Part shown: positions 18,193 through 63,530 of the stretch, in pieces
Numbering within the stretch: the first letter of the stretch is position 1
Layout: each line of letters starts with the position of its first letter
Assembly: GCA_037481815.1 (NCBI GenBank)
Contig: JBBFKX010000003.1
Span: 116,255 to 180,254, forward strand
Direction of reading: 5' to 3'
Length of the DNA: 64,000 nt
DNA from: a candidate division WOR-3 bacterium
GTDB lineage: Bacteria > Hydrothermota > 32-111
Made by a program: the position numbers and the translations under genes
Notes under the pieces: model-generated
Database searches by the model: none
What the model saw: the letters and a program-made list of their open reading frames with translations, nothing else
What the model was told of the DNA's origin: nothing

Positions 18193-18200
18193 ATTAAAAA

Positions 18201-18533
18201 TGGAGGCGGCGGGAATCGAACCCGCGTCCAAAGATAGATGTTCAGTTCTTCTACATGCTTAGCATCCATGAATTTATCCTGATTGGCTGGATGCGACCTT
18301 TCAGGATTTTTGCCCTTCTCTTTTGGTATGATTTGGGCAGATCATACCAGCAGTCAGGATAGATGAAGGTCATTTCAAAACCCCTGACCGGTCTTGAAAG
18401 CCCTGCCGCTAAATTATGCGGCTAAAGCGAAATTGTTGTCTTTTCTTTTTCGCCGGTTTTTTTACGAGACACCAGCAATCTCGGCATGCTTCCCCTGAAC
18501 AAGATTATCCCTGTCGAGACCAATTTCGCCCCC
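18201..18533 (-). ncRNA. ssrA: tmRNA (transfer-messenger RNA)
   Basis: Minus strand starts GGGGGCGAAATTGGTCTCGAC and ends GGACGCGGGTTCGATTCCCGCCGCCTCCA. Acceptor stem has a G3:U pair and the T-arm is GGTTCGATTCC. Internal tag frame ends ...GAC AAC AAT TTC GCT TTA GCC GCA TAA (DNNFALAA stop). CCA is not encoded. Confidence 0.9.
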
Positions 18534-45589: not shown

Positions 45590-46379
45590 AAAAATTTTTT
45601 TTAACTATTTTTTTCAAATCTTCAATGTCGATATTGAGCAACTCAGAAATTTTCTTATATATGTAAACAACATACTCTGGTCTATTCCTTTTGCCTCTGA
45701 ATGGAACAGGAGAAAGGTATGGTGAATCGGTTTCGATGAGCATCCTTTCGATATGATCTTTTTTGATTATATCTTTTAAATCGTTGTTCTTGAAAGTTAT
45801 GATTCCATTTATTCCAAAAAAATATCCTTTTGAAACTAAATTTTTTAGATTTTTTTCTGTACCTGAAAAACTATGGAACTCGAAAACCAGATCTTTATAA
45901 TCATCAATTATTTCGAAAACCTCTTCGTATCCGTTTCTCACATGCAACATCACAGGTTTTTTCTTTTTTCTCGCAAGATCCAACTGTTTTATAAAAAGTT
46001 CTTTCTGCTGTTTTAACTCATCCTTTTTGTGCCAGAAAAGGTCAACACCTATTTCCCCGATTCCAGAACAACCTTTTTCATCAAGCAATTTTTCTATTTC
46101 GTGAATATCTTGATCAGTGTAATTTGAAGCGTAGTGTGGATGTATTCCAGCAAAGTGATACACTTCAAAATCGTCAGGGAATTCTATGGAAAAAGATTTT
46201 TTGCTACTATCAACATCATATCCGACTATGTTTAAAATCCTGACATTGTTTTCCCTCAAACTTGAGGTAAAAACATTCATATTTTTTTCAAACTCAAACT
46301 CCTCCATTTGAAGATGGAGGTGAGAATCAAGAAAAGGTTCAGCCAACAGTATCCCCTGCTTCACAACTCTCATCAGCAA
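45564..46379 (-). CDS. tatD: TatD family metal-dependent hydrolase
   Basis: DSHLHL N-terminal motif, later IGEIGVD, HxR, ETDSPY. The real start may be TTG 46346, which overlaps the metG stop (GTTGGCTGA) and follows GGGGA. Confidence 0.85.
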   Translation of the reverse strand: MLMRVVKQGILLAEPFLDSHLHLQMEEFEFEKNMNVFTSSLRENNVRILNIVGYDVDSSKKSFSIEFPDDFEVYHFAGIHPHYASNYTDQDIHEIEKLLDEKGCSGIGEIGVDLFWHKKDELKQQKELFIKQLDLARKKKKPVMLHVRNGYEEVFEIIDDYKDLVFEFHSFSGTEKNLKNLVSKGYFFGINGIITFKNNDLKDIIKKDHIERMLIETDSPYLSPVPFRGKRNRPEYVVYIYKKISELLNIDIEDLKKIVKKNFYEFIGKKS

Positions 46380-48375
46380 AAAGAACTTTTACCCTTGTTT
46401 TATCTTTATTGGAAGCGGCAAGAAGCATACCAAACGACTTGTTTCCCCTTATCGTTGCAGGTTCAAGATTTTTCACAACAATTATTTTTTTTCCAGTAAG
46501 ATCTTCTGGTTTATAAAACAACGCAACTCCTGCAACAATATCTCTGATTTCATCTCCAACATCGATTTTCAATTTCAAAAGTTTATCTGAATTCTCAACT
46601 TTTTCGCATGAGAGAACTTTTGCAACAACAAGTTGAACCTTTTTGAAATAGTCGATGGAGATATAGTTTTTATCTTCATCCTTTTTCTCTACTGATACAA
46701 TTTCCGTTGAAACCTTTTGCCCCATCCTTTTTCTTTCTTCTTCGATAACTTTATCCTCTATCTTTGAGAAAAGAATATCAAGTTTTTTATTTTTAAATTC
46801 CTGCAAAGGTTCTAAATTTTTTATATCATCCCATCTGAATTCTTTTATCTCCAAAAAATCTCTCAGCCTTTTCGACGTGAATGGAATAAATGGATCACCA
46901 ACACATGATAGAACAACAACCGCCTTCATACAAACATACAGAACAGTATCAAGGTAATCCCTATCATTTTTTGCAAGAACCCAAGGTTCCTTTGAAGCAA
47001 AATATTTGTTCGATTCTCTTGCTATATCCATGAACTCATATGTTGCTTTTCTCAACTGATAGGTTTCTATGTATTCCCCAACCTTTTGAACCTTTTCATA
47101 TATCGTTTTCAAAAACTCTCTATCATCATCTTTTAACTCTTTTCCTTTCTTAACCTTTCCATCATTGTATTTTAAAACGAATTGCACGGTTCTATTTATG
47201 AAATTTCCATATATATCGGCAAGTTCCCCATTGTTTCGGTTTTGAAACTCTGTCCATGAAAAATCGGTATCTTTATTTTCCGGGAGTATTGATGCAAGAA
47301 CATACCTTAAAATATCCGGTGGAAACCTTTTAAGATAATCGTCAAGCCAGACAGCCCAGTTCCTGGATGTCGAAAGTTTTTTTCCTTCGATATTCAAATA
47401 CTCGTTTGCGGGAATATCATAAGGTAGATTATAACCCTCCTCAACTCCCATAAGTATTGATGGCCAGATTACAGAATGAAAAACTATGTTATCCTTTCCT
47501 AAAAAATGTATGATTCTTGTATCTTTATCCTTCCACCATTTTTCCCATCCATTCTTATCACCTTTATTTTCAAAATACTCCATAGTTGAAGATATGTATC
47601 CTATAGGTGCGTCAAACCAGACATAAAGAACTTTGTTTTCAAATCCTTCGATTGGGACTTTCACTCCCCAATCAAGATCTCTTGTTATGGCTCTTGGTTT
47701 CAAACCTTCTTTGATCCATCCAAGAGAGAACTCTTTAACATTATCTTTCCACCATGTCCGCGAATTTATGTACTCTTTCAATCTATCCTGAAACTTATCA
47801 AGATCAAGATAAAAATGTTCTGTCTCTTTTACAACAGGTGTAGCACCACAGATTTTACATTTTGGATCTATCAACGAAACATTATCTATCGGTTTTCCAC
47901 AGGTATCACATTGATCACCTCTAGCCCCTTCTGCTTTACAATGTGGACAAATGCCTTCAACATATCTATCGGGTAAAAATCTTTTACAATTTTCACAGTA
48001 GTACTGTTTCTCAACCTTTTTTGAAACATATCCATTTTGATAAAGTTTCAAAAAGAAATGTTTTGCATTCTCATGATGTATTGGCCTTGAAGTTCCCGAA
48101 AAATTATCGAAAACGATTCCAAATTTTTCAAAAGAATCTTTCATAACCTTATGGTAATAATCAACTATCTCTTTTGGAGTTTTCTTCATCTCGTCCGCTT
48201 TGATCGTTATTGGAACACCATGTTCATCACTTCCACAGATAAAACAAACTTCCTCTCCTTTGAGTTTCAAATATCTCACAAAAATATCAGCAGGAAGATA
48301 GCATCCTGCAAGGTGACCTATGTGGATTGGACCATTGGCATAAGGTAATGCAGCGGTTACGAGATACCTTGTCAT
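46339..48375 (-). CDS. metG: methionine--tRNA ligase with C-terminal tRNA-binding (Trbp111/EMAP-like) domain
   Basis: PYANGPIHIGHL (HIGH), KLSTSRN (KMSKS-type), Zn knuckles CPHC...CDTC and CKIC; the ATG at 48375 shares its A with the upstream stop (TGATG). Confidence 0.95.
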   Translation of the reverse strand: MTRYLVTAALPYANGPIHIGHLAGCYLPADIFVRYLKLKGEEVCFICGSDEHGVPITIKADEMKKTPKEIVDYYHKVMKDSFEKFGIVFDNFSGTSRPIHHENAKHFFLKLYQNGYVSKKVEKQYYCENCKRFLPDRYVEGICPHCKAEGARGDQCDTCGKPIDNVSLIDPKCKICGATPVVKETEHFYLDLDKFQDRLKEYINSRTWWKDNVKEFSLGWIKEGLKPRAITRDLDWGVKVPIEGFENKVLYVWFDAPIGYISSTMEYFENKGDKNGWEKWWKDKDTRIIHFLGKDNIVFHSVIWPSILMGVEEGYNLPYDIPANEYLNIEGKKLSTSRNWAVWLDDYLKRFPPDILRYVLASILPENKDTDFSWTEFQNRNNGELADIYGNFINRTVQFVLKYNDGKVKKGKELKDDDREFLKTIYEKVQKVGEYIETYQLRKATYEFMDIARESNKYFASKEPWVLAKNDRDYLDTVLYVCMKAVVVLSCVGDPFIPFTSKRLRDFLEIKEFRWDDIKNLEPLQEFKNKKLDILFSKIEDKVIEEERKRMGQKVSTEIVSVEKKDEDKNYISIDYFKKVQLVVAKVLSCEKVENSDKLLKLKIDVGDEIRDIVAGVALFYKPEDLTGKKIIVVKNLEPATIRGNKSFGMLLAASNKDKTRVKVLFADESCEAGDTVG

Positions 48376-49217
48376 CAATCCTCCTTTGTTTTGTTGAGGT
48401 TTGGGACAAATTTCCATTTTTTCTTTTTGATTCTATTGAACTCATCAAGTGTGTGTGTTATCAGTCCGCCATTCTCTTCAACATCTTTGTATTGTATCGT
48501 TACAAGGTCATTGTATATATCAAGTTTCACAATTTTACCTTCACCTAAAGTTGTTATAACATTTGAATTTATAGGAGGGAATCTCTTATACACATCCTCG
48601 TAAAAATCCATTTCGTACATCAGGCAACACATCAATCTTCCACACATCCCTGATACTTTTTGAGGTGTTACTGAAAGACCCTGATCTTTCAATGTCTGTA
48701 AAGTTATCGCTTCAAAATCTTTCAAAAATCTTCTACAACACAACTCTTCACCACATGCCCCAAAACCTCCCAACCTTTTAGCATAATCTCTTACTCCTAT
48801 CTGTTTCATCTGAATTCTCGCATGAAAGTATGAAGCGAGTTGTTTTACAAGATTTCTAAAATCGACCCTTTTTTCAGAAATAAAATAGAAGGTTATATGT
48901 TGCCCATCAAAATGTATCTCAATATCAACAAGTTTTATATTGAGTCCATTCTCCTTTATGAATTTCAAAGTTGGTTCATAAGCATCTTTTTCTTTCATCT
49001 CGTTTGATTTTTTTAACCTTATATCATCGTCTGTTGCCTTCCTTATGATTTTCCCAATAGATTTCTCAAACTCGTATGGAAAGATTTTCAAAAGAATTCC
49101 TATATCAAGCCCCTGATCATGTTGACACACAACATATTTCCCTTCCTCAACATCTATGTTTGTTGGTATTTCAAACATCTTTCTCTCAGCACCTCTGAAC
49201 TCAACTCTTCCAAACAT
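48375..49217 (-). CDS. ricT: PSP1 domain protein (RicT/YaaT-like)
   Basis: PSP1 C-terminal pattern with a Cys-rich stretch GACGEELCCRRFL...GMCGRLMCCL; follows holB as in Bacillus. Confidence 0.8.
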   Translation of the reverse strand: MFGRVEFRGAERKMFEIPTNIDVEEGKYVVCQHDQGLDIGILLKIFPYEFEKSIGKIIRKATDDDIRLKKSNEMKEKDAYEPTLKFIKENGLNIKLVDIEIHFDGQHITFYFISEKRVDFRNLVKQLASYFHARIQMKQIGVRDYAKRLGGFGACGEELCCRRFLKDFEAITLQTLKDQGLSVTPQKVSGMCGRLMCCLMYEMDFYEDVYKRFPPINSNVITTLGEGKIVKLDIYNDLVTIQYKDVEENGGLITHTLDEFNRIKKKKWKFVPNLNKTKED

Positions 49218-50226
49218 TATCTTTAACTCCTTCCTTTAAATCAAAGAGGTGATTTATTATATGAGCAGTTTGAAAGTTCACCCTTATATCCTGTTCAATA
49301 CTCATCAACTCTTCAAGCATCTCTGACAAATTTTCAGCAGTTTTAGCATTTTCACTTTCAAGTATTTTTTCGTTCAAATATTTTGATAAAACCTTTAAAA
49401 AAAGTTTTAAAAAATATTTTTCTTCTCCCTTTTTTGAAAGGGTTGAAAAATATTTTAAAAATCCATCCCTATCACCAGACAGAAACATATTCAAACTCTT
49501 TTGAGAATCGAAGGTTGTTTCAAGATCGATCTCTGGGCTTATATAACCATCAAAAATATAAAGATAGTTTTCTATTTTCTTTTCATCGTATCCAAGTTCT
49601 TTATATATTTTATAAAAATCATCCTTTGTCAGATAACCAAATTTTAAGACCTGACATCTTGAAACTATGGTTGGTAATACACCGTTCAAATTATCAGTTG
49701 TTAGAATAAACATCGTGGATTTTGGTGGTTCTTCAAGAATTTTTAAAAATGTGTTCGCTGATTCTTTTCTCATCATTTCAATGTTCCTGACGATGAAAAT
49801 TCTCTTTTCACCCAAATATGGTTTTGTCGAAGATTCAACTATAATCTCTCTTACAAGATCAACCGGGATATTTTCGTTCCCCGAAAAAGAAAAGAAATTT
49901 AAAAAAAACAATGTTCTTTCTTTTTTGGTTGTCTTATCTTTTACACCTTCCTGTAAAATTTCATTTATAGATTTCAAAATCGAATCTGAACTTATAAGAT
50001 CCTTTTTCAAAAAAGGATACACGATAAACAGATCTGGATGTTTAAACTCTTCAACATGTTTTCTATATTTCTCTCCAAAAATCTGTACAGCGAACTCTAA
50101 AGCAAGAGAGAATTTTCCAACACCTTTGTTTCCAGTAAAAAGGTAAGCGTTTGCTACCTTTTTTTCGAGAATGGATTTTTCAAGAATACTTTTCACTTTT
50201 GAATGACCAACGATATTTTCAAACAT
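49201..50226 (-). CDS. holB: DNA polymerase III delta-prime subunit
   Basis: AAA+ clamp-loader pattern GNKGVGKFSLA, ANTFLKILEEPP, TIVSRCQ. Confidence 0.82.
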   Translation of the reverse strand: MFENIVGHSKVKSILEKSILEKKVANAYLFTGNKGVGKFSLALEFAVQIFGEKYRKHVEEFKHPDLFIVYPFLKKDLISSDSILKSINEILQEGVKDKTTKKERTLFFLNFFSFSGNENIPVDLVREIIVESSTKPYLGEKRIFIVRNIEMMRKESANTFLKILEEPPKSTMFILTTDNLNGVLPTIVSRCQVLKFGYLTKDDFYKIYKELGYDEKKIENYLYIFDGYISPEIDLETTFDSQKSLNMFLSGDRDGFLKYFSTLSKKGEEKYFLKLFLKVLSKYLNEKILESENAKTAENLSEMLEELMSIEQDIRVNFQTAHIINHLFDLKEGVKDNVWKS

Positions 50227-50227
50227 A

Positions 50228-51448
50228 CTATTTCTTTTTCAGATATTGTAAAGGATTTATAGGCTTCCCATCTTTTCTCATCTCAAAATGTAAAACTGGC
50301 CCTTCAAGCGAACCCGTATCACCACCTTTTCCTATAACCTCACCTGCAAGAACCGGCTGGTTCAGCACCACATCTATTTCAGACAGATGAGCGTACAATG
50401 TATAATAACCGTTTCCATGATCTATCATCACCACATTACCATATCCTAAAAATTTATCAGCATAGATTATATCACCATCATAAACGGCGTATATAGGATC
50501 CCCGATGTTCACTTTTATATCGATTCCATTATTTATCGTTTTAGTTCCATATTTTGGATGCATAACTGAACCATAAGATGAAATCACTTTTCCATTTGCA
50601 GGCCAGATCACTTTACCCTTGTTCAGATCAAAATAATGTTTACCTTCAGAAACATCCCTTTTCTTGTCAATCTTTTTCTGAGCGATCCTCAATTTGTTTA
50701 TAAGATATTGCAAAGATTCCTGTGATTTGATCAACTCTTTTTCGATATCTGTCTGTTTTTTCTGCTCCGTCTGCAAACCTTTCAAAAATTGCTTTTTTTG
50801 CTCGATTTTATTCTGGAGTTCCTGTTTTTCTTTTTCAACTTCACTTTTCACAACAAGCAGTTGTTCTTTGCTCTGGTTGTACTCCTTTAGTTTTGTCTGA
50901 TATAACACCTGCAACTTTTTGACTTTATCATAAAGTTTTTTATCCTGTTTTGCCAAAAGCAATAGGTATCTTATCCTTTTTGCAAGATCAGCAAAAGATT
51001 TTGAGGTAAATACAACTTCAAAAGTGTGTATTTTTCCTTTTTTGTAGATGTTTATTACTCTTGTTTTTAATTTTGCTCTTCTATCGTTCAACTCATTTTG
51101 AACCTTTACAAGTTCTTTTTCAGTTGTATCTATTTTTAATGTCAAAAGTTTATCTTTTGTTTCAAGTTGTTTTATCAGAAGATCCGTTAAATATATCTCC
51201 TCATCCATCTTGTTTAAACTGTAAAGTGTTTTTGTTTCTTCAAGTTTTAACGAGTCCTTTCTCTCTTTGATCTGATTTAACTGTTTTTTGAGATCATTCA
51301 ATTTCTTCTCATTTTCACTGATCTTTTTATCAATATCATCATCAGCAAAAATCGTTGAAAAAATCAAAAGAAAAAACAGGAAACTAAAAACAACTTTTTT
51401 TGATGATACTATCAACGATATCTTCCTTTTTAACATTTTCCATCTCAC
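50228..51448 (-). CDS. coiled-coil M23/LytM-domain protein (EnvC-like murein hydrolase activator)
   Basis: Signal/anchor, about 230 aa of K/E/L/Q coiled coil, C-terminal LytM domain (GNVVMIDHGNGYYTLYAHL...LHFEMR); start uncertain (overlaps moxR). Confidence 0.75.
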   Translation of the reverse strand: MRWKMLKRKISLIVSSKKVVFSFLFFLLIFSTIFADDDIDKKISENEKKLNDLKKQLNQIKERKDSLKLEETKTLYSLNKMDEEIYLTDLLIKQLETKDKLLTLKIDTTEKELVKVQNELNDRRAKLKTRVINIYKKGKIHTFEVVFTSKSFADLAKRIRYLLLLAKQDKKLYDKVKKLQVLYQTKLKEYNQSKEQLLVVKSEVEKEKQELQNKIEQKKQFLKGLQTEQKKQTDIEKELIKSQESLQYLINKLRIAQKKIDKKRDVSEGKHYFDLNKGKVIWPANGKVISSYGSVMHPKYGTKTINNGIDIKVNIGDPIYAVYDGDIIYADKFLGYGNVVMIDHGNGYYTLYAHLSEIDVVLNQPVLAGEVIGKGGDTGSLEGPVLHFEMRKDGKPINPLQYLKKK

Positions 51449-52352
51449 CTTTGAATGACAGAATCAACCTGTGTTTTAAAACATAGGGAGCAACTTTTAC
51501 AACATCATCTATATCGGGCGTAACTCTTCCATCCATCAGTGCATATCCTTTTGCTGCAGCGATGATAAAAATTCCAGCCCTTGGACTCGCTCCCCATTTG
51601 ATATACTCTTTTACAAGATCAACTTCACTCGTTTCAGGTCTTGAGTTTCTTAAAATTTTTGAAACAGTTTCAACGATGTTCGACCCAACAGGTGCACTTT
51701 TAACATATTCCTGTATCTTTATTATATCATCCTTTTTAACTATGCCCTGATCAATTTTAAAATCTTCGTTCACGATCCTTTGTTTTAAAATCTCCATCTC
51801 ATATCTTTTTTCAGGATAATCTATCTGTATCATGAACATAAATCTATCAAGTTCCGCCTCAGGTAAAGGATATGTACCTTCCTGTTCGATCGGGTTCTGT
51901 GTGGCAAACACATTGAACGGTTTTTCGAGTTGATAATCAACACCTTCATTTGTGACCATTCTTTCTTCCATCGATTGCAAAAGTGCTGCCTGAGTTTTGG
52001 GAGGTGTTCTATTTATCTCATCGGCAAGTATTATATTTGCAAACACAGGACCTTTTATGAACTTGTACAGGGTTTCATTTCCATCCTTTCTTAGGACTGT
52101 TGTTCCAGTAATATCTGAAGGCATAAGATCCGGTGTAAACTGGATTCTACTATATTTACAATCTATGCTCTTTGCGATAAGTTTTATTATCAATGTTTTT
52201 GCAAGACCGGGAACACCAACTATTATTGAATGAGAATCACATATCAAAGTCAAAAATACCATCCTTATTATCTGATCCTGTCCTGCTACAACTTTTTTTA
52301 CATTCTCTTCTATTCTTTTATAAATTTTTGAAACATCTATGATTTCATTCAT
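51384..52352 (-). CDS. MoxR-family AAA+ ATPase
   Basis: Walker A GVPGLAKT, Walker [29 protein letters not shown]. Confidence 0.9.
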
Positions 52353-54876
52353 CTTTTTCCTCTAAATTCTCTTCTTCATCTGATCCTTCATCCTCTTCCC
52401 CATACTGTTGTTCATCAACATTTTTTTCACTTCCATTTCCATTCTCGTTGTATTCATGTGCTATTATCGCAACATCGACTAGTTTATCACCTTCTGCAAG
52501 GTTCATCAATCTAACACCAGCAGTGTTCCTTCCGATAACTCTTATATCCGATACTGCAATCCTTACTATCTGTCCCGATTCTGCTATCAAAAGAAGTTCA
52601 TCTTTATCAAGAACTTCGATAGCATCAACAACAGCACCGTTCCTTTCATGTGTTTTTATCGCTATTACCCCTTTTCCACCTCTATGTGTCTTTCTGTATT
52701 CCTGCATCTCTGATCTTTTTCCATATCCATTTTCTGTTGCAATAAACAGTGTCGATTCCCTTTTAACAACAACCATGCTGACAACCTCATCACCCTCTTC
52801 AAGTGTGACACCTTTAACTCCAGTTGCTCCTCTTCCCATATCTCTCACTTCATTTTCTTCAAACCTTATCGCCATTCCCCACTTTGTCACTATGATAACA
52901 TCGTTTGTTCCATCTGTTAAAGCAACATCTGCAACATTATCATTTTCATTAAGGTTGAGAGCGATTATTCCACCTTTTCGAGGATTGCTGAATGCGGAAA
53001 GTTCTGTTTTCTTTGCTATACCATTTTTTGTGATTATGAAGACAAAATGTTTATCATCAAACTCTCTTACGGGAACAGTTCCTCTGATCTCTTCATCCTT
53101 TTCAAGTTCAAGAAGGTTGACTATCGCTCTTCCTTTTGATGTTCTTCCACCTTCAGGGATCTGGAAAACTTTCAACCAGTAAACCTTTCCTTTGTTTGTG
53201 AAGAATAGAATATACTGATGTGTTGATGCGATAAAAATCTTTTCAGCGAAATCATCATCCTTTGTTGTTAATCCGATAACTCCCTTTCCCCCTCTATTCT
53301 GTTTCCTGTATGAGGAAATAGATTGTCTTTTTATATATCCCTGATGTGTTATCGTCACTATAACATTTTCATCCGCTATAAGATCCTCTATTTCAAGTTC
53401 CTCATCCTCATTTGGAACTATTTCTGTCAATCTTCCGTCTCCATACTCTTTTTTGATTTCAAGAAGTTCCTCTTTTACAACATTCAGAATATTTTTTTCA
53501 GATGAAAGTATGAATTTCAACCTTTCGATAAGTTTTATCAACTCTTCATACTCCTGATCGAGTTTCTCCCTTTCAAGGCCGGTCAACCTTGCAAGTTTCA
53601 TTTCAAGTATCGCGTTTGCCTGAATTTCTGATAGTTTAAATTTTTTCTGAAGTTTTTCTGATGCATCCTGAACATTCTCTGATGTTTTTATTATTTTTAC
53701 AACTTCATCGATATTTGAAACTGCGATTTTCAGTCCTTCAACGATGTGTGCCCTTTCCTCTGCTTTTTTCAGATCAAATTCTGTTCTTCTTCTGACAACT
53801 TCTTCTCTATGTTTTATGTAATGATGGATAATATCCTTCAATCCTAAAACTTTTGGTTCATTGTTCACAAGACAGATAAACATTATGGAATATGAGGTCT
53901 TCAGTTGAGTGTGTTTATAGAGTTGATTTAAAACAACTCTTTTCTCTGCACCTCTTTTGAGTTCAAGCACTATCCTCATTCCATCCCTATCGCTCTCATC
54001 TCTTATATCTGAAATATCTTCTATAACTTTGTTGTTAACAAGTTCAGCGATCTTTTCGATCAATTTTGCTTTATTTGTCTGATAGGGTATTTCAGTTATA
54101 ATGATCTGTTCTTTTTCATTCTTTTTTGTTTCAAATTTAACTTTTCCTTTTAAAATTATCTGCCCTTTTCCTGTCTCATACGCTTTTTTTATTCCACTTA
54201 TTCCCTGAATTATTCCACCTGTCGGGAAATCTGGTCCCTTTATATATTTCATCAACTTTTCAACACTGATTTCAGGGTTATCTATGTATGCAACCATTCC
54301 ATCAACAAGTTCTGTGATGTTATGTGGTGGAATATTTGTAGCCATTCCAACAGCGATTCCAGAAGTTCCATTCGCAAGAATGTTTGGAAACTTTGATGGG
54401 AGAACTACCGGTTCTTTGTAAGAACCATCAAAGTTTGGCATAAAGTTGACAGTATCCTTATCGATATCAACAAGCATCTCCTCAGCGATTTTTGAGAGTT
54501 TTGCTTCCGTGTACCTGTAAGCAGCAGCAGAATCACCATCTATTGAACCAAAGTTTCCCTGTCCTTTCACAAGTGGATACCTTAATGAAAAGTCCTGAAC
54601 CATTCTGACGAGTGTTTCATAAACAGCCATATCTCCATGAGGATGGTATTTACCAAGAACATCTCCAACAACTGTTGCTGACTTTTTAAACGGTTTGTTG
54701 TGGTAAAGCCCAAGTTCTTTCATCGCATAGAGTATTCTACGATGTACTGGTTTTAAACCATCACGAACATCAGGTAAAGCCCTGCTTATGATTACAGACA
54801 TTGCGTAATCGAGATAAGAGGACTTCATTTCATCTTCGATAGTTACATCAATGATTCTCTGTCTGTTGATATCCAT
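52345..54876 (-). CDS. gyrA: DNA gyrase subunit A
   Basis: [25 protein letters not shown] (QRDR), [10 protein letters not shown] (catalytic Tyr), C-terminal beta-pinwheel repeats and an acidic tail. Confidence 0.97.
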
Positions 54877-54888
54877 TTACAAAACTCC

Positions 54889-55191
54889 TTAGTATTGTGG
54901 ATAATTTTTATTTTTCACATTACCATTATTTTTATTGTAAACAAAATCCTCTAACGGATTTTCAAGTGTTAGATTTAGTTCAGAAAGATCCTCAGGATAC
55001 CTTCCATTGTTCATATAAAATGTTGCTATACCATTCCTTAACTTGTTAAGGTCAGATAACACTTTTGTTTTATCCGGAAGTTGTAAAACCTTTTCTGTTG
55101 TTTCTATTGTTTCTTTTTTTGTCTCACAAGCGTTGAATAACATCGATATAAATAAAATTATCATAAAAATAAATAATATTCTTTTTATCAT
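54889..55191 (-). CDS. small secreted/lipoprotein, hypothetical
   Basis: 100-aa ORF, hydrophobic N-terminus ending FNAC; the LRNGIATFYMNNGRYPEDL pattern resembles pseudopilin-like folds; weak. Confidence 0.4.
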   Translation of the reverse strand: MIKRILFIFMIILFISMLFNACETKKETIETTEKVLQLPDKTKVLSDLNKLRNGIATFYMNNGRYPEDLSELNLTLENPLEDFVYNKNNGNVKNKNYPQY

Positions 55192-55265
55192 AATAAGAAC
55201 TCCTAAAATTTAATGTTTTATTATAACAAAAAACTGAAAATCTTTCAACTAAAATCAGTTATTTT

Positions 55266-55376
55266 AAAAAATAAAAATGGGCAGATATTGAATCTGCCCG
55301 CTGAGCCCCGTAGGGCTTAACAGTTCGGCTTACGCCTTACTGGGACTTGACTACAAAACCATTTTAAGTAGAATTT
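55266..55376 (-). ncRNA. tracrRNA (predicted)
   Basis: Minus strand: AAATTCTACTTAAAATGGTTTTGTAGTCAAGTCCCAGTAAGGCGTAAGCCGAACTGTTAAGCCCTACGGGGCTCAGCGGGCAGATTCAATATCTGCCCATTTTTATTTTTT. A 36-nt anti-repeat (55339-55374) is complementary to the minus-sense repeat at 32/36 positions, with 2 G:U and 2 C:A. It is followed by a GGC-GTAA-GCC nexus-like hairpin, an AGCCC-TACG-GGGCT hairpin, and an 8-bp terminator stem (55279-55299) with a U-tract. Confidence 0.75.
55347..55374 (+). promoter_or_regulatory. predicted cas9 promoter embedded in the anti-repeat
   Basis: Plus strand TTGACT (55347-55352), 16 nt, TAGAAT (55369-55374); predicted start about 55381, 41 nt before the cas9 ATG; same architecture as the promoter in each CRISPR repeat. 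Confidence 0.45.
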
Positions 55377-55382
55377 AAAAAT

Positions 55383-55410
55383 ATTTTAACTATTTAAAAA
55401 TTTTTGTCAA
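55383..55410 (-). promoter_or_regulatory. predicted tracrRNA promoter
   Basis: Minus strand TTGACA (55410-55405), 16 nt, TAAAAT (55388-55383); predicted start about 55376, 2 nt before the anti-repeat. Confidence 0.55.
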
Positions 55411-55421
55411 GGGGGAATTTT

Positions 55422-58400
55422 ATGAAGTATGTTCTTGGTCTTGATCTTGGATACAATTCAATCGGCTGGGCTATTTTAGAACAGGATGAAAATGGTAATC
55501 CTGTAAAACTTATAAATACAGGTGTTAGATTGTTTGATCCTTCAGTAGAAGACATGGAAAAGGATGGAAAGGGAAAAACAAAAAATGTCACAAGAAGAGA
55601 GGCAAGATTAAGAAGAAGACAACTTTTTAGAAAAACGAAACGACTTGAAAAACTTTTAAATTTTTTTATAGAAAATAATTTTTTCGAAGATCAAAAAGAA
55701 AAGATTTATGATTCTTTTGAAAGGGACGAATTTTTATCCAAACTTGATAAAGAATTGTTAAATCCTTATATTTAAGAAGAAAAGGTCTTGATGAAAAACT
55801 TGAATTAAAAGAACTCGCAAGGATATTTTACCATATTGCACAACATAGAGGTTTTAAAACAACAAAACGAGAACTTGCAAAGATGGAAGATAATAATGAA
55901 AAGAAAAAAGAGTCAGGTATTGTGCAGAGTGAGATAAATTCTCTTGCTGAACAAATAAAACAATCTGGCAGTAGAACTTTGGGAGAATATTTTGCAACAC
56001 TTTTTGAAAAAGGAGAAAGAATCAGAGGAAAACATACAAGCAGAAAAATGTATGAAGAGGAGTTTGAGCAGATTTTTAAAAAACAGAAAGAGTTCTATCC
56101 AGAAATTTTAACAGATGATTTTAAGAAAAAACTTTACAAACTCATTTTCTTCCAGAGAGAATTGAAAAGCCAGAAAGATAAAGTTGGAGAATGTATTCTT
56201 GAAAAAGGTAAAAAAAGAGCACCCATTGCTCTCCTTGATTCTCAAAGGTTCAGATATATGTGCAAGGTAAACAATTTGAAACTGATTGATAAAGATACCG
56301 GAGAAATAACAGAGTTAACAAAAGAAGAAAAACAGAAAATTTTCAATGAACTCGAAAACAATGAAAAACTGACTTTTGATAAGATAAAAAAACTTCTTGG
56401 TATAAAAGACAAAGAAAGATTCATTTTCAATATAGAGAAAGGTGGAGAAAAACATATCACTGGAAACAGAACAAATGTGAAGATGAAAAAGGTTTTTGAT
56501 GATTGGGACAATTTTGATGAAGAGAAAAAGAACTCCATGATAAACGAAATCAGAACAATTGTAAAAATAGAAGCACTCGAAAGAAGAGGTTTAAAACTTG
56601 GATTTTCCCCTGAACAGGCAAAAAAATTCTCTCAGGTTGTTTTTGAAGATGGATATTTGAGTTATTCAAAAAAGGCGATCGAAAAACTTTTACCATTTTT
56701 AAAAGAAGGTTACAAAGAATATGATGCAATAAAAAAAGTTTACTCTGTTGAACTTGATAATCCAATACACGAAGAATTTGATTTTCTCCCTGAGATAGAA
56801 GATGTCATTCAAGTTAGAAATCCACTCGTTGAAAGAACCCTCTCTGAAACAAGATATCTTGTGAATTTTCTGATAAAAAAATATGGAAAACCAGAAACAA
56901 TAAAAATAGAACTTGCAAGAGAATTGAAACTTTCAAATAAACAGAAAGAACAAAAAGTAAAGGAGAATCGAGAAAACAGGAAAAGAAGAGAGGATGCAAT
57001 AGAAAAAATAAAAAATGATTTAAACATAACCGAACCAACAGAAGATCAGATTTTAAGATACCTTCTTGCAGAAGAATGTGGTTGGCATTGCCCTTATACT
57101 GGAAAATCTATTAATATAAACGACCTTTTGGGTCCTCATCCATTATTTGATATTGAGCATATAATTCCATTTGATAGATCTCTTGATAACTCTTTCTTAA
57201 ACAAAACTCTCTGCTACTCAGAAGAAAACAGAAATGTAAAACACAACAAAACACCCTATGAAGCATATTTTGGGACCGATAAGTGGGAAGCAATAATTGA
57301 AAGAGTAAAAAAATTCAATGGAAACGCCCGACTTGAAAAATTGAGAAGATTTCAGATGACACCAGAACAGGTTGAAAAACATTTTGAAGATTTTTCATCT
57401 CAATATTTGAACGACACAAGATACGCTTCAAAAGAAGCAAAAAAATATCTTGGTTTACTCTATGGTGGAATAAAAGATGATGGAATGGATAATAAAGGAA
57501 AAAGAAGAGTCATTGCAAGTTCTGGAAGAGTTACTTCAACATTAAGAAAAGCCCTTGGATTGAATACAATTTTAAACGAAGAAGATTTCAAAATAAGAGA
57601 TGACCATCGCCAGCATGCTATTGATGCTATAACAATAGCGTTAACTGATAATTCAACTATCAAAAAAATTTCTGATGCTGCAAAAAAAGAAAAATCTTTA
57701 GAAAAACTTTTCAAAAACTATCCTCTTCCATGGGAAAATTTCAGGCAGGAGGTTGAAGAAAAAATTACAAACCTTCTCGTTTCAAGAAAAGTTAACAAAA
57801 AAGTTTCAGGTCAGATACATGATGAAACATATTACAAAAAACCATTTGAAGAGAACGGTCAATCTTATACACACAAAAGAGTTAATTTGGAAAGTTTAAG
57901 TGAAAAAGATATTGACAATATAGTTGATGAAAGAATAAAAGAGATTGTAAAAACAACTCTAAACGGAGAAGATCCTAAAATCAAATTCAAAGATCCTAAA
58001 AATCATCCTTATGTCGAACAAAAAGATGGAAAAAAAGTTCAAATACATAAGGTTACAATAAAAACCAAATTTGAAACTTATAATGAAATTGGCCCAGAAA
58101 AAGCGAAAAGATATGTTCAATCAGCAGATAGCCATCATATTGAAATCTTTGAAGATTTGAAAACAGGCAAATGGGATGGATATGTTGTTTCTCTACTTGA
58201 GGCATACAAAAGAAAACAGAAAAATCTTCCAATCATAAACAGGAACTTCGGAGAGAACAAAAAATTCTTATTTTCTCTTGCAAAAGGAGAGGTTATCGAA
58301 CTTGATACTGAAGAGGGGAAAAGAGAGTTGTATGTTATAAAAAGAATAGCAGGGAACAATAAACAATTGTTGTTCACTAAAATCCATGATGCAAGAAAAT

Positions 58401-58519
58401 CTGATGAAATTAATAAAAACCCAAAAGGGCTAACAGCTGTTCCATCTGGACTACAGGCAAGAAATTGTAAAAAAGTTGTTATAAATATTCTTGGAGAAAA
58501 ACATTACGCAAATGATTGA
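55422..58519 (+). pseudogene. cas9: type II-C Cas9, about 1032 aa if repaired; interrupted by one frameshift near 55770 (true pseudogene or a sequencing/assembly error)
   Basis: ATG 55422 follows GGGGGA. Motifs in order: RuvC-I MKYVLGLDLGYNSIGWAIL (Asp at 55443-55445), bridge helix RREARLRRRQLFRKTKR, RuvC-II ETIKIELARE, HNH DIEHIIPFD...NKTL...NVKHNKTP (His at 57158-57160), RuvC-III DDHRQHAIDAITIAL. Frame 0 stops at TAA 55773-55775. Frame 2 is open from 55751 and continues LRRKGLDEKLELKELARIFYHIAQHRGFK through to 58519. Confidence 0.9.
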
Positions 58520-59432
58520 AAAAATAGTTGAGATTTCAGAAGGACCTGTAAAACTTTCTTCTGAGTATGAACAACTGATAGTATCAAAAAATGGAAGTGA
58601 AATTTTAAAAATTCCTTTAAATGAAATCGCTGTTATTCTAATTTCAACTCCACTTGCTTCAATTTCAACAAATGTAATTTCTCTAATAACCAAAAATAAA
58701 GGGATGATTGTAACCTGTGATCAATTCTATCTTCCAGTTGGTGTATTTTTACCTTATGAACTCAATTACATTCAATATGAAAGAATACAAAAACAGATTA
58801 ACGCTTCTTTGCCATTAAAAAAACAACTCTGGAAACAGATAATTTCAGAGAAAATAAATTCTCAGGCATCAGTTTTAAAAAAACATAAAGGAAACGATTT
58901 TGGACTTTTCTACATTTCACAAAAAGTTCAATCAGGTGATTCAACAAACCTTGAAGCATACTCTTCAAAAATCTACTGGAAACAACTTTTTGGAGAAAAA
59001 TTCAAACGCGATAAAGATCTACCTGGTGTTAATTCTATTTTAAACTATGGTTATACAATTTTAAGAGCGATGACAGCAAGAGCGGTCTGTTCTTCTGGAT
59101 TAAATCCAACACTTGGTATATTCCATCATAATAAATACAATACCTTCTGTCTTGCTGACGATCTTATGGAACCATATAGGCCTATAGTTGATGAGTTAAC
59201 TTATAAGTTGATGATCAACTCAGGAATACAACTCTTTTTAACAAAAGAGTTAAAAAAAGAAATCATCGAACAACTTCTGGACAAAAAATTTGAAGTTAAC
59301 AAAGAAAATTATTCACTTAACGAGTCACTGTTTAAATTAGCATCATCTCTTGTAAATGTTTATAATGGAAAAGAGAAAAAGTTAAATATTCCAACACCTT
59401 ATGAAAAGGAAAAAAACACCAACACAAAATAA
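58512..59432 (+). CDS. cas1: CRISPR-associated endonuclease Cas1 (type II)
   Basis: LNYGYTILRA...GIFHHNKYNTFCLADDLMEPYRPIVD catalytic-region pattern. The ATG at 58512 overlaps the cas9 stop (ATGATTGA); an alternative ATG lies at 58491. Confidence 0.9.
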   Translation: MIEKIVEISEGPVKLSSEYEQLIVSKNGSEILKIPLNEIAVILISTPLASISTNVISLITKNKGMIVTCDQFYLPVGVFLPYELNYIQYERIQKQINASLPLKKQLWKQIISEKINSQASVLKKHKGNDFGLFYISQKVQSGDSTNLEAYSSKIYWKQLFGEKFKRDKDLPGVNSILNYGYTILRAMTARAVCSSGLNPTLGIFHHNKYNTFCLADDLMEPYRPIVDELTYKLMINSGIQLFLTKELKKEIIEQLLDKKFEVNKENYSLNESLFKLASSLVNVYNGKEKKLNIPTPYEKEKNTNTK

Positions 59433-59751
59433 CAGATACCATTCGATGTGGATTTTAGCACTTTTCGATTTACCAACATTAACAAAAGAGGACAGAAAAA
59501 ATTACAGGGACTTTAGAAAAGAACTTTTAAAATCTGGTTTTGAACAATTACAATTTTCTGTGTATGCAAGATATGTCGGTGACGAAAAAAGAGCGGAAAC
59601 ATTTAAAAACAAAATAAAATCGGTTGTTCCACCAAAAGGTGAAGTCAGAATAATCTGTTTAACAGATATCCAGTTTGGAAAGATGGAAGTATATTATCAA
59701 AATTCCAGGAAAAAACCTGAAAAGAAACTTGAACAACTTCTACTTTTTTAA
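59401..59751 (+). CDS. cas2: CRISPR-associated endoribonuclease Cas2 (type II style)
   Basis: NRYHSMWILALFDLPTLTKEDRKNYRDFRKELLKSGFEQLQFSVYARY parallels the S. pyogenes-type Cas2 N-terminus (YRYMRMILMFDMPTDT..RK.YRKFRKFL...GF...QFSVY); overlaps the cas1 end. Confidence 0.85.
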   Translation: MKRKKTPTQNNRYHSMWILALFDLPTLTKEDRKNYRDFRKELLKSGFEQLQFSVYARYVGDEKRAETFKNKIKSVVPPKGEVRIICLTDIQFGKMEVYYQNSRKKPEKKLEQLLLF

Positions 59752-59768
59752 TCCAGTTTTAACAATAA

Positions 59769-59799
59769 ACCCTCTCATTGTGTGAACTTAAGAGAGGGT
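59769..59799 (-). terminator. hairpin between cas2 and repeat 1 (possible terminator of minus-strand array transcripts)
   Basis: ACCCTCTC (59769-59776) pairs with GAGAGGGT (59792-59799) across a 15-nt loop; on the minus strand it is followed by TTTATTGTT. Confidence 0.35.
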
Positions 59800-59801
59800 C
59801 T

Positions 59802-61488
59802 ATTCTACTTGAAATGGTTTTGTGGTCAAGCCCCAGCAAAGTTTTATGCATAGATTCTAAAATTAGTATTCTACTTGAAATGGTTTTGTGGTCAAGCCCC
59901 AGCGAAAAATCCTTTGACTTTTCTACAATGCTTATTCTACTTGAAATGGTTTTGTGGTCAAGCCCCAGCGCGATTATATTCTTCAAAACAAAATCCTCTA
60001 TTCTACTTGAAATGGTTTTGTGGTCAAGCCCCAGCTAAACTATGACAATAGTGAGGATACTGCTAATTCTACTTGAAATGGTTTTGTGGTCAAGCCCCAG
60101 CAACCTTCTTTTGATAATGTCAATATGATAAATTCTACTTGAAATGGTTTTGTGGTCAAGCCCCAGCGGGATAGCGGAGCAATAGAAAGTGATGCATATT
60201 CTACTTGAAATGGTTTTGTGGTCAAGCCCCAGCCAAATAAGAGATGATATAGAAGTACTATATATTCTACTTGAAATGGTTTTGTGGTCAAGCCCCAGCT
60301 ACTCGCTTCTTTCAAGGATGAAAAATAAAATTCTACTTGAAATGGTTTTGTGGTCAAGCCCCAGCGCTGGAGTTTGTTTCAAGTAATGACTCACCATTCT
60401 ACTTGAAATGGTTTTGTGGTCAAGCCCCAGCAACTTATGAGGTTTATAAAAAATTAAACGAATTCTACTTGAAATGGTTTTGTGGTCAAGCCCCAGCAAA
60501 AAAATGTTTTATATATAATAGAAACAAATTCTACTTGAAATGGTTTTGTGGTCAAGCCCCAGCAGCTTTGAACCCGGTTTATACAGTATTCATATTCTAC
60601 TTGAAATGGTTTTGTGGTCAAGCCCCAGCCAATTCTTGTGCTTTGTTTTCAAGTGTGTTATTCTACTTGAAATGGTTTTGTGGTCAAGCCCCAGCAAAGG
60701 AATAGGTGTTGGTTTAGGGGCTGGTATTCTACTTGAAATGGTTTTGTGGTCAAGCCCCAGCCATAGATGGGTCTGATGCATACCCAGATAAATTCTACTT
60801 GAAATGGTTTTGTGGTCAAGCCCCAGCTGTTTAATTTGCTTCCTGTATTGTAATATTATTCTACTTGAAATGGTTTTGTGGTCAAGCCCCAGCCAAAAAC
60901 CAAAATGACAGATGTTGAAAGTGATTCTACTTGAAATGGTTTTGTGGTCAAGCCCCAGCCATAGATGGGTCTGATGCATACCCAGATAAATTCTACTTGA
61001 AATGGTTTTGTGGTCAAGCCCCAGCTGTTTAATTTGCTTCCTGTATTGTAATATTATTCTACTTGAAATGGTTTTGTGGTCAAGCCCCAGCCAAAAACCA
61101 AAATGACAGATGTTGAAAGTGATTCTACTTGAAATGGTTTTGTGGTCAAGCCCCAGCTATCGATTTGGTTTTGTAATAACATGGTTAATTCTACTTGAAA
61201 TGGTTTTGTGGTCAAGCCCCAGCCTCGAGTTTGTTTCAAGTAATGACTCACCAATTCTACTTGAAATGGTTTTGTGGTCAAGCCCCAGCACCCGGCTTCA
61301 ATGTTTTTATCTGTATTGAATTCTACTTGAAATGGTTTTGTGGTCAAGCCCCAGCTCGACTGCACTGGAGATGCTGTTGTTGGAGAATTCTACTTGAAAT
61401 GGTTTTGTGGTCAAGCCCCAGCTCATTTTTTTGTAAAACTTCCTTAAAAAATATTCTACTTGAAATGTTTTTGTGGTCAAGCCCCAGC
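59802..61488 (-). CRISPR. CRISPR array, 26 repeats / 25 spacers; transcription inferred on the minus strand
   Basis: 36-bp repeat ATTCTACTTGAAATGGTTTTGTGGTCAAGCCCCAGC with a 66-bp period from 59802. Spacers are 30 bp (spacer 24 is 31 bp). The last repeat (61453-61488) has G to T at 61468. Orientation comes from tracrRNA complementarity and the promoter motif in the repeat. Confidence 0.97.
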
Positions 61489-61516
61489 TAAGAAGTATAT
61501 TGTTAAATTGTTATTG

Positions 61517-61804
61517 GGGACGGTGCTTGACTTTTTGACTTTTTTTTGTAACTTTATTTTTTTACGAAACTTAAAATTGATATAAATTTTTAGTTTTTTT
61601 TAATTTTTTTAAAACAAAAAAGTAAACTTTTTTATTCAATATCTTTTTTTGCCTTTGTTTATGATAGTTTCGGAATAATATAAATAGTGAAAATACAACA
61701 AAAACCTTAAAAAAATAAATAAAATTCTAACAGTTTTTTTTCGTATAACTTATTTTAAAACAATAAGTTAAAATATTTACTGTCAAAAAGTCAAGCACCG
61801 TCCC
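61517..61804. repeat. MITE-like element: perfect 23-bp terminal inverted repeats around a 242-bp AT-rich non-coding core
   Basis: GGGACGGTGCTTGACTTTTTGAC at 61517-61539 and its exact reverse complement at 61782-61804; no ORF inside; no obvious target-site duplication. Confidence 0.4.
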
Positions 61805-61863
61805 TAAGTTTATTTTTATATTAAAATCTTGTTTTATCTTAAATAACCTGTTATAATTATTTT

Positions 61864-62058
61864 ATGAAAAAACCTGTAAAAATTCTAAAGCAAAAGGAAA
61901 AAGCAGAATTTAATCGAAGTGTCTGGCATAACATGACTCCTGATGAAAGATTACAGATTGTTGAAAAATTAAAAGAAAATTATGTCAAAAGTTTTTTAAA
62001 CAAAAATGCACAAGGATTTAAAAGAGTTTTTAAAAAGTTTAAACGAAAAAAAAGTTGA
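61864..62058 (+). CDS. small hypothetical ORF upstream of and overlapping the NTase-fold gene
   Basis: 64-aa basic ORF; overlaps the next ORF by 53 nt in another frame, so it could be an independent partner gene or a frameshifted N-terminus. Confidence 0.3.
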   Translation: MKKPVKILKQKEKAEFNRSVWHNMTPDERLQIVEKLKENYVKSFLNKNAQGFKRVFKKFKRKKS

Positions 62059-62440
62059 TTACATGATTGTTGGAGGAATAGCAGTAGCATATTACGGTTA
62101 TCCCCGCTACACTGGTGATATAGACATCTGGATAAAAAAGTCAAAAGAAAATGCTCAAAAAGTTATTGAGGTGGTAAAAAATTTTGGCTATTCAAATATC
62201 GATTTATCACTTGAGGATCTCCTTGAAGATAATATGGTTTTTCAATTCGGAGTTGAACCAAATAGAAACGATTTAATCACAGATCTGGATGGTATAACTT
62301 TTGAAAAAGCAGAGAAAAATAAACAATTGATATCTCTTTAAAACATTTCAGTTTATATTGTTTCTCTTGAAGATTTAAAGAAAAATAAAAAGGCATCAGG
62401 AAGATATAAAGATCTTGATGATATTGAAAATCTTCCGTGA
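62006..62440 (+). pseudogene. small nucleotidyltransferase-fold protein interrupted by an in-frame TAA
   Basis: VDYMIVGGIAVAYYGYPRYTGDIDIW (a GG...G-x-D-x-D NTase-type motif). A TAA at 62339-62341 is followed in the same frame by NISVYIVSLEDLKKNKKASGRYKDLDDIENLP, the conserved C-terminus of this family. Confidence 0.55.
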
Positions 62441-62546: not shown

Positions 62547-63530
62547 TCAAAATTTTGGAAATACCTCCATGCCATTTTTGTTGAGGTATTTTGTAACACC
62601 AACACTACCATTCTCTTTATACTGAAAAATTTCAACAGCATACCCATAAACATTGTTCACAAGCATATCCTCTTCATCAGTATAAAAAATCTTTTCAAGT
62701 TGTCCTTTTGAGTTGTAAACAAAGCCCTTTTTTGCATAACCAACAATAAAACTCTCTTTCAAATTGCCTTTCTCATCATGATAACTTTCTTCGATTTTTC
62801 TCCCCTTACTATCATATTTCCATCTTTTTATTGGGACATAAAGTTCGTTGGCACCTTTTAAACTATCATTTTTATCATAAAAACTTTCCTCTATCAATCT
62901 TCCATTGTTATCATATTTCCATTTGATTTTAGCACATCCGTATAAATCCTCTGCAATTTCTCCATTTTCAAAATGTTGTTGTTCAACACATCTTCCATCT
63001 GAATCATACAAAAATCTGTATTCTGCAACTCCACAATAATCTTTAACCTGATTTCCATTTTCGTCAAAATTTATGTTTTGAACAACATGTTTTAAATCTT
63101 TTCCTTTTTTATCTTTGAACACCTGATAGAAAAATTTCATTCTATATACACCATCACTCGTTTTGATCTGATTATCATCTTTATCTTTAAAAATAAACTC
63201 TTTACCTAAACTATCATAATTAATAATAATCTTCGCAACACCAAATATTCCACCATTTTTCAGTTTGTTTTGCTGATAATACTCTATCGTCTTCAAAAGG
63301 TCATTTTCATATTTGAAACGATAATACTCAAAATAATTTTCAGGATTTTTCAGTTCATCAACTCCAACAAATTCAAAATTCGTTGAAACCCCATAATCAA
63401 AACTAAGATAAGTGATTTCTTTCTGGTTCTGATTGCAATTGACTTTGCAAACATTTCCAACACACTCCCCTGCAGTTAGAAATAAATTTAATACAAAACC
63501 TATAATAATGAATAAAAAATTTCTTTTCAT
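62547..63530 (-). CDS. secreted repeat protein (YD/RHS-like or MORN-variant-like repeats)
   Basis: Signal peptide; repeated units YDSDGRCVEQQHF, YDNNGRLIEESFYD, YDSKGRKIEESYHD, YNSKGQLEKIFYTD. Confidence 0.55.
   Translation of the reverse strand: MKRNFLFIIIGFVLNLFLTAGECVGNVCKVNCNQNQKEITYLSFDYGVSTNFEFVGVDELKNPENYFEYYRFKYENDLLKTIEYYQQNKLKNGGIFGVAKIIINYDSLGKEFIFKDKDDNQIKTSDGVYRMKFFYQVFKDKKGKDLKHVVQNINFDENGNQVKDYCGVAEYRFLYDSDGRCVEQQHFENGEIAEDLYGCAKIKWKYDNNGRLIEESFYDKNDSLKGANELYVPIKRWKYDSKGRKIEESYHDEKGNLKESFIVGYAKKGFVYNSKGQLEKIFYTDEEDMLVNNVYGYAVEIFQYKENGSVGVTKYLNKNGMEVFPKF

Follow-up and report, generated by a model that had tools for sequence, protein, structure and literature searches.

A compact type II-C CRISPR-Cas9 locus with a frameshifted cas9 gene in an uncultivated, probably thermophilic WOR-3 bacterium

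The window considered here is a stretch of 64,000 nucleotides from a candidate division WOR-3 bacterium (assembly GCA_037481815.1, contig JBBFKX010000003.1), which between positions 55266 and 61488 harbors a compact CRISPR locus with its associated cas genes. A trans-activating CRISPR RNA (tracrRNA) gene on the minus strand is followed by cas9, cas1, and cas2, and finally by the CRISPR array (Table 1). To our knowledge, candidate phylum WOR-3 is without cultured members and its CRISPR biology is unstudied. A chance origin is ruled out, as repeats, profile matches, and predicted RNA fold all score far beyond their controls, and the locus as a whole is very probably best explained as a canonical type II-C CRISPR-Cas9 adaptive-immunity system of an uncultivated, probably thermophilic member of this phylum. 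In the window strain, the cas9 frame does not run through: it meets a TAA after 117 aa, and insertion of a single T into the T-run of the frameshift site yields a 1032-aa product with no further stop.

Table 1. Positions of the locus features in the window.
Feature	Position	Strand	Description
tracrRNA gene	55266-55376	-	~105-110 nt; anti-repeat, hairpins, terminator
tracrRNA intrinsic terminator hairpin	55279-55299	-	GGGCAGAUUCAAUAUCUGCCC then AUUUUUAUUU; stem arms GGGCAGAU...AUCUGCCC, then U-tract
Anti-repeat	55339-55374	-	near reverse complement of the repeat on the plus strand
Promoter-like motif in anti-repeat DNA	55347-55374	+	TTGACT-16-TAGAAT, 10/12 positions; faces cas9
Predicted tracrRNA promoter	55383-55410	-	TTGACA-16-TAAAAT, 11/12 consensus positions; implied start ~55376
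cas9, whole	55422-58519	+	interrupted by a 1-nt deletion
cas9, 5' fragment	55422-55775	+	117 codons and premature TAA (55773-55775); RuvC-I (D8), Arg-rich bridge helix (57-74)
Frameshift site	55771-55773	+	three T in the window versus four in intact alleles
cas9, remainder	55772-58519	+	915 codons, shifted frame; recognition (REC) lobe, RuvC-II, HNH, RuvC-III, wedge and protospacer-adjacent-motif-interacting (WED/PI) region
cas1	58512-59432	+	306 aa, type II/NMENI class
cas2	59401-59751	+	116 aa, type II class
Conserved hairpin CCCTCTC...GAGAGGG	59770-59798		within the 50-bp spacer between cas2 and array, 3 bp from repeat 1
CRISPR array	59802-61488	-	26 repeats of 36 bp, 25 spacers, 66-bp period (Tandem Repeats Finder and repeat finder)

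The repaired 1032-aa open reading frame (ORF) spans the NCBIfam equivalog model for Cas9 (TIGR01865) from end to end (profile positions 1-1070 of 1070) and scores 700 bits, the cut-off being 100; it is also recognized by the Pfam families HNH_4, Cas9_a, and RuvC_III. The catalytic residues are all kept, namely D8 (in LDLGYNSIGWA), E497 (RuvC-II), and H732 and D735 (RuvC-III) of the RuvC nuclease as well as H580 and N609 of the HNH nuclease, and the Arg-rich bridge helix occupies residues 57-74. Among solved structures, the best sequence match is the Cas9 of Neisseria meningitidis (NmeCas9; 2.7e-78), followed by HpaCas9, Geo/ThermoCas9, and CjCas9. Identity to NmeCas9 amounts to 32.5% over the aligned residues 2-778, and the C-terminal tail that interacts with the protospacer-adjacent motif (PAM) is barely alignable to that of NmeCas9 (25.9 bits). 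The AlphaFold model of P0001, a relative of 94% identity, has a mean predicted local distance difference test score (pLDDT) of 82.5 and matches the complex of Nme1Cas9 with single-guide RNA (sgRNA) at template modeling (TM) scores of 0.72-0.75, with 24-25% identity over the whole chain. Another relative, P0122 (MEO0280787.1), is 1040 aa long and carries an 8-residue tandem duplication (EKLRRIQI then EKLRRFQM) just past the HNH motif region and before RuvC-III.

The ATG of cas1 at 58512 lies within the last cas9 codons, giving an 8-nt overlap with the cas9 stop (ATGATTGA). Its product belongs to the NMENI class (TIGR03639 cas1_NMENI, 281 bits; PADLOC Cas1_II, 2.6e-101), and that of cas2 matches Pfam PF09827, TIGR01573, and PADLOC Cas2_II (5.5e-40). 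Neither csn2 nor cas4 is present; from cas2 to 61864 there is no ORF of at least 50 aa except spurious ones internal to the array, and the flanking ORFs gave no Cas matches in Pfam, NCBIfam, or PADLOC. Subtypes II-A and II-B were rejected for want of a csn2 or cas4 gene at the locus. Ranking of the matches leads to the same subtype: in sequence as well as in fold, II-C enzymes (Nme, Hpa, Geo/Thermo) take all the top places, with the II-A enzymes Sau and St1 ranked below them. Cas9d was likewise rejected, its model scoring 168 bits against a cut-off of 375.

A first-pass annotation of the window had described a complete type II-C locus without a fourth gene, and this subtype was borne out on every defining feature tested. 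The Cas9 hallmarks indeed follow each other in canonical order (D8, 57-74, E497, H580/N609, H732/D735), the repaired protein has the anticipated length of ~1032 aa after a single added T and with no other stop, and the start of cas1 inside the cas9 end, the type II style of cas2 (by its Cas2_II match), and the numbers of 36-bp repeats (26) and unique spacers (22) were all confirmed. A profile search of the repaired ORF, proposed in advance as a test, clearly returned Cas9 (TIGR01865, 700 bits), and none of the characterised Cas9s reached the preset identity of >90%, with NmeCas9 at ~32%. The word complete holds for the inventory, since every element lies where it had been placed, but not for the window strain, in which cas9 is most likely a pseudogene. 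In its architecture the locus follows the II-C archetype throughout, and close relatives have already been annotated automatically as Cas9.

The usual position of the anti-repeat in II-C loci is upstream of cas9, and the tracrRNA region is kept there in all relatives examined. Read from 5' to 3', the tracrRNA comprises the anti-repeat, a nexus-like hairpin (GGC-GUAA-GCC), a further hairpin (GCCCC-UACG-GGGGC), the terminator hairpin, and a U-tract. Along the 36 repeat positions, the anti-repeat forms 34 pairs (two of them G-U) and leaves two mismatches, and across relatives repeat and anti-repeat covary at three duplex positions (C/A/T with G/T/A, A/G with T/C, and G/T with C/A). The consensus fold contains four pairs with compensatory double changes, located in hairpin 2 and the terminator, whose stem shows one compensatory G-C to C-G change. 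When joined through GAAA, repeat and tracrRNA form a chimera of the expected sgRNA shape (-81.7 kcal/mol, z = -13.6). The terminator hairpin is the sole terminator-like site in 55100-55500, where shuffled sequences lead one to expect 0.1, and Rfam holds no family matching the tracrRNA or the repeat. The tracrRNA promoter is predicted from its sequence consensus; its TTGACA element (plus strand TTTGTCAAGGGGGA) is kept in all relatives.

Since promoter, hairpins, and terminator frame the anti-repeat in the proper order only on the minus strand, the crRNAs (CRISPR RNAs) must be minus-strand transcripts. A plus-strand reading of the crRNAs was rejected, because it is on the minus strand alone that the anti-repeat has the hairpins and the terminator on its 3' side. 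The first-pass annotation had placed the guides in minus sense and the PAM beside the low-coordinate spacer ends; the tracrRNA strand bears this polarity out, and the guide RNA, that is, the crRNA:tracrRNA pair, can now be specified with confidence. Arrays read in the direction opposite to the cas operon are documented in N. meningitidis and Campylobacter jejuni (PMC3737331). A promoter-like motif in the anti-repeat DNA faces cas9; it may serve as the promoter of cas9 or simply reflect that this DNA is complementary to the repeat. Its predicted start (~55381) lies ~6 bp from the opposite-strand tracrRNA start, and the two crossed promoters thus each fall within the other's transcribed region, an arrangement that may cause mutual interference or may itself be a by-product of complementarity.

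The repeat unit (ATTCTACTTGAAATGGTTTTGTGGTCAAGCCCCAGC; in the crRNA, from the minus strand, GCUGGGGCUUGACCACAAAACCAUUUCAAGUAGAAU) is identical in 25 of its 26 copies, with one mismatch in the last, cas-distal copy (61453-61488), which has the form found throughout the arrays of the relatives L001 and L002. Spacers measure 30 nt (one 31 nt), and 22 of them are unique, as S15-17 equal S18-20. This internal tandem duplication of three spacer-repeat units (60726-61121) has a counterpart in a duplicated seven-unit block of the L004 array; such duplications could stem from real repeat-mediated recombination or from an assembly effect in repetitive regions. Spacers S9 (60366-60395) and S22 (61224-61253) cover the same protospacer with a 1-nt offset and one mismatch, and similar pairs in the same register or with a 1-nt shift occur elsewhere (L002 S5/S7 and L004 S11/S25), a pattern suggesting that a single site beside a PAM was sampled more than once, from variant invaders.

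The hairpin in front of the array keeps an invariant stem and a variable loop in all relatives examined. Its minus-strand fold (-18.9 kcal/mol, z = -4.1) is followed by UUUAUUGUU, making it a likely terminator for minus-strand array transcripts that would shield cas2 and might act in both directions. The promoter of the cas2-proximal repeat would fire into the 50-bp segment that contains it. We further take this hairpin to belong to the acquisition leader, since the one variant repeat is found at the opposite, cas-distal end. No spacer is shared among the arrays of the four genomes compared, and the assigned polarity of acquisition therefore rests on the variant terminal repeat together with the conserved cas2-side leader. 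The same complete turnover of the array between genomes points to active acquisition in the lineage.

In an intact locus, the tracrRNA would be transcribed leftwards from the near-consensus promoter directly upstream of cas9. The array would likewise be transcribed in minus sense, against the direction of cas9-cas1-cas2, most likely starting from a promoter in each repeat, and each crRNA would begin ~6-8 nt inside its spacer, which leaves a guide of ~23-25 nt. Read-through along the array would stop at the conserved hairpin before cas2. By pairing with the anti-repeat (34/36), the repeat part of the crRNA would be loaded into the 1032-aa Cas9, and the complex would cut DNA that bears a PAM 3' of the protospacer (low-coordinate spacer end, plus strand). 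New spacers would presumably be added by Cas1-Cas2 at the cas2-proximal repeat.

Several points weigh against parts of this reading. The search for protospacers from which the PAM was to be read covered all 22 unique window spacers and, in the local and phage searches, also the spacers of relatives; it found no protospacer in the window, in L001-L020, among INPHARED phages, PLSDB plasmids, or IMG/VR (exact-core scans), or in JGI metagenome contigs. The best matches are within chance, at 14-15 nt or, for Bacillus phages, 26/28 (E = 0.3). The repeat promoters amount to a single sequence in 26 copies and are not 26 independent observations, and both promoters and terminators were called by consensus, in a host phylum in which no promoter is known to have been mapped. 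The hairpin between cas2 and array has a loop of 11-15 nt and failed a simple terminator scan. Finally, the structural model belongs to a relative of 94% identity, not to the exact window sequence.

How the crRNAs arise is the first matter on which an alternative has to be weighed. All 26 repeats contain TTGACC-16-TAGAAT on the minus strand (10/12 positions), with the -10 hexamer ending at the last repeat base, and promoters embedded in repeats have been shown experimentally in Neisseria and Campylobacter II-C arrays (PMC5965381, PMC3737331, PMC12477760). In Neisseria, transcription starts from the sixth spacer nucleotide and the leader-adjacent repeat yields no crRNA (PMC5965381; PMC12477760). 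In the alternative, the crRNAs would come mainly from one long precursor (pre-crRNA) that originates in the conserved cas-distal flank (61489-61860) and is cut by RNase III in the repeat:anti-repeat duplex, and the promoter motif of the repeat would be incidental. That flank is conserved in relatives, including a perfectly conserved 23-bp inverted repeat, and the long, near-perfect repeat:anti-repeat duplex would make a good RNase III substrate. Against this, 61489-61900 contains no strong minus-strand promoter, the best candidate (9/12 at 61853-61880) lying beyond the inverted repeat, and the 10/12 motif with its 16-nt spacing has hexamers that are kept or even closer to consensus (TTGACT, TATAAT) in the diverged repeats of relatives, where the positions in between vary. 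We therefore favor initiation within each repeat and consider predominant use of a long precursor rather unlikely, albeit with a real share of the probability; it may operate as an additional route, given that the two are not mutually exclusive and coexist in Neisseria (PMC5965381).

The second matter is the nature of the cas9 break. At the frameshift site, the 92%-identical allele L004 and the contig L021 (from the separate run SRR16606022) read ATTTTAAG, and the window and L022, a Logan contig from SRR33387333, read ATTTAAG; the codons are CCT TAT ATT TAA in the window, CCA TAC ATT TTA AGA in L004, and CCT TAC CTC TTA AGG in L001-L003. L021 is 99.8% identical to the window in DNA, with nine substitutions over 5.3 kb, contains TTTT, and encodes P0126, a 1032-aa Cas9 that differs from the repaired ORF by two residues. 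Neither allele of the site was found in JGI metagenome contigs. A sequencing or consensus error in a fully functional locus would fit a change of a single base in a short homopolymer, the intactness of tracrRNA, cas1, cas2, and 25 identical repeats, and an intact allele with just nine other differences over 5.3 kb. Yet L022, a separately built assembly carrying an 878-aa protein, matches the window at every position of 45883-59837 (~14 kb), TTT run included, so that the deletion resides in the underlying data and is no quirk of a single assembler. The fragments are moreover stored as separate public entries: the window's 117-aa fragment is identical to the public protein P0124, and the P0001 protein cluster includes members of 117, 898, 878, and 1032 aa (the last being P0126). 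All ten neighbor genes in 44876-55191 keep the lengths seen in relatives, free of indels, and the assembly is accordingly not indel-prone; a T3-versus-T4 miscall would also be rare with short-read or HiFi data. In favor of an error it must be said that L022 possibly derives from the same reads as the window, in which case a systematic read error could be shared. On balance, an error is improbable, and the break is likely a real and strain-level inactivation, which would be recent because every other component of the locus is intact. It was also considered that the break might be a site of programmed recoding or phase variation by which the Cas9 level is adjusted, as the T-run lies near the beginning of the gene and alleles of both kinds are found in nature. 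However, three to four T are too short for a typical contingency locus, the required -1 shift at U-AUA-UUU-AAG lacks a slippery heptamer of the form X-XXY-YYZ, and the T tract is not conserved (CTC TTA in L001-L003); programmed frameshifting was rejected on the latter two grounds, and we regard this whole explanation as highly improbable. With inactivation as the preferred reading and Cas9 truncated after 117 aa, interference and Cas9-assisted spacer selection are most likely switched off in the window strain.

Among 5.8 billion proteins, the closest to the repaired ORF are two 1032-aa Cas9s from WOR-3 metagenome-assembled genomes (MAGs), at 94% and 92% identity. The next relatives (71-62%) are labelled WOR-3, TA06, or simply 'bacterium', and a broad set at 40-48% spans Nitrospirota, Planctomycetota, Hydrogenedentota, and other phyla. 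Over 39 window ORFs, the fraction of the amino acids I, V, Y, W, R, E, and L (IVYWREL) is 0.423, which according to the rule of Zeldovich, relating this fraction to growth temperature, corresponds to ~60 C. The closest loci belong to the WOR-3 MAGs SRBZ-2_201901 and DPZ-2_202101, names that point to the Tengchong geothermal field, where the SRBZ springs have 78-80 C and pH 8 (PMC3541193). Thermophily of the host is thus plausible from the spring names of its relatives and from its IVYWREL fraction. A full-text literature search combining WOR-3 with hot springs and Cas9 brought up nothing relevant.

The order gyrA, 100-aa ORF, tracrRNA, cas9-cas1-cas2, and array is common to genomes of ~88% DNA identity, and the adjacency of gyrA and cas9 holds even at a Cas9 identity of merely 62-63%; in relatives of 70% identity, the locus is located elsewhere. 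Downstream, a 327-aa gene (62547-63530) is kept in the ~88%-identity relatives, and only a small spot between array and this gene varies. Because gene order and adjacency recur in relatives and variation is confined to this spot, the locus is a long-standing resident beside a small variable patch and no border of a large accessory island. The first-pass annotation had placed it at the edge of an accessory region, which is weak in view of the recurrent gene order.

Within this spot, a 111-aa ORF (61864-62341, plus strand), preceded by an overlapping 64-aa ORF, resembles AbiEii-type nucleotidyltransferases over no more than their N-terminal third (profile positions 12-70 of 219, 5.8e-5) and looks like a toxin-antitoxin remnant. 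In L001 the spot holds a 144-aa AbiEii-like version, accompanied by a PDDEXK protein as well as an N6/N4 methyltransferase; all three are missing from L004. The 23-bp inverted repeat mentioned above (GGGACGGTGCTTGACTTTTTGAC; 61517-61539, plus strand, and 61782-61804, minus strand) is perfect, surrounds ~240 bp of AT-rich DNA, and lies just past the cas-distal array end, a location that it also has in L001, L004, and L022. L021 lacks it; there, a single CRISPR repeat is joined directly to the DNA that follows on the right of the element. The element could belong to a pre-crRNA leader, form an operator pair, or be an old mobile element; a recent insertion of a miniature inverted-repeat transposable element was rejected, as the position is the same in ~88%-identity genomes and the window holds no other copy. 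Single CRISPR repeats after cas2 were seen in L006 (Logan SRR25293831; 10412-10600) and L021 (5268-5303) and reflect either true loss of the array or assembler collapse, which does occur, since the window's 26 repeats are reduced to two in L022. On the other side of the locus, the 100-aa ORF (54889-55191, minus strand) always lies beside gyrA, even where Cas9 is 62-63% identical (102 aa there), and has no match in Pfam, NCBIfam, or PADLOC. Elsewhere in the window, a full-length transfer-messenger RNA gene occupies 18198-18533 on the minus strand (Rfam RF00023, 158 bits).

With this locus, WOR-3 gains a documented II-C system whose tracrRNA:crRNA pair is well supported; the understanding of type II-C systems as such is unchanged by it. 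The probably inactivated cas9, set beside an intact allele of 99.8% identity, illustrates on a small scale how CRISPR is lost within a population. An intact 1032-aa orthologue (P0126, or MEO0235088.1 at 94%) combined with the defined guide scaffold is a candidate for a thermostable, compact editor. More tentatively, the Cas9 clade of the intact alleles, from springs near 80 C and ~32% identical to NmeCas9, might provide a compact, highly thermostable nuclease with an unseen PAM, and transcription of its tracrRNA and cas9 might be mutually exclusive or coupled, a prospect that we consider rather unlikely.

Of the systems available for comparison, the Cas9s of the WOR-3 MAGs (MEO0235088.1/MEO0297577.1 and MEO0288088.1; assemblies GCA_039804105.1, GCA_039804125.1, and GCA_039804205.1) are nearest, with 92-94% protein identity, 1032 aa, a position next to gyrA, a tracrRNA in common, and a repeat that is identical or 1 nt off. 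They differ in that their genes are intact, their DNA is ~88% identical, and no spacer is common with the window. These Cas9s are automatic annotations and uncharacterised. CjCas9 of C. jejuni is smaller (984 aa) and a far weaker match (1.1e-45). It nevertheless shares the minimal operon and the array opposite to cas, and has the repeat-embedded promoters that are predicted for the window (PDB 5X2G; PMC5965381, PMC3737331). GeoCas9 and ThermoCas9 (PDB 8JTJ, 8UZA, 9AR4) are compact II-C enzymes of thermophiles and among the top sequence and fold matches, but they are farther than Nme (E ~1e-65 to 1e-69; TM 0.56-0.69) and come from Bacillota; for the window Cas9, thermostability is what we would infer. 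The II-C system of N. meningitidis (Nme1/Nme2Cas9; PDB 6JDQ, 6JE3) differs from the window in that the window repeat has both a -35-like and a -10-like hexamer, in that the repeat and tracrRNA sequences are unrelated, and in that the window host is a WOR-3 bacterium, probably of hot springs, of ~31% GC content with a frameshifted cas9. It is all the same the best match in both sequence (2.7e-78) and structure (TM 0.72-0.75), and the likeness extends to the minimal cas9-cas1-cas2 operon, 36-nt repeats, ~30-nt spacers, a Cas9 of ~1030-1080 aa, an array opposite to cas with promoter elements (in the window, predicted ones) in its repeats, and a variant repeat at the end opposite to the transcription-based expectation (PMC3737331, PMC5965381, PMC12477760).

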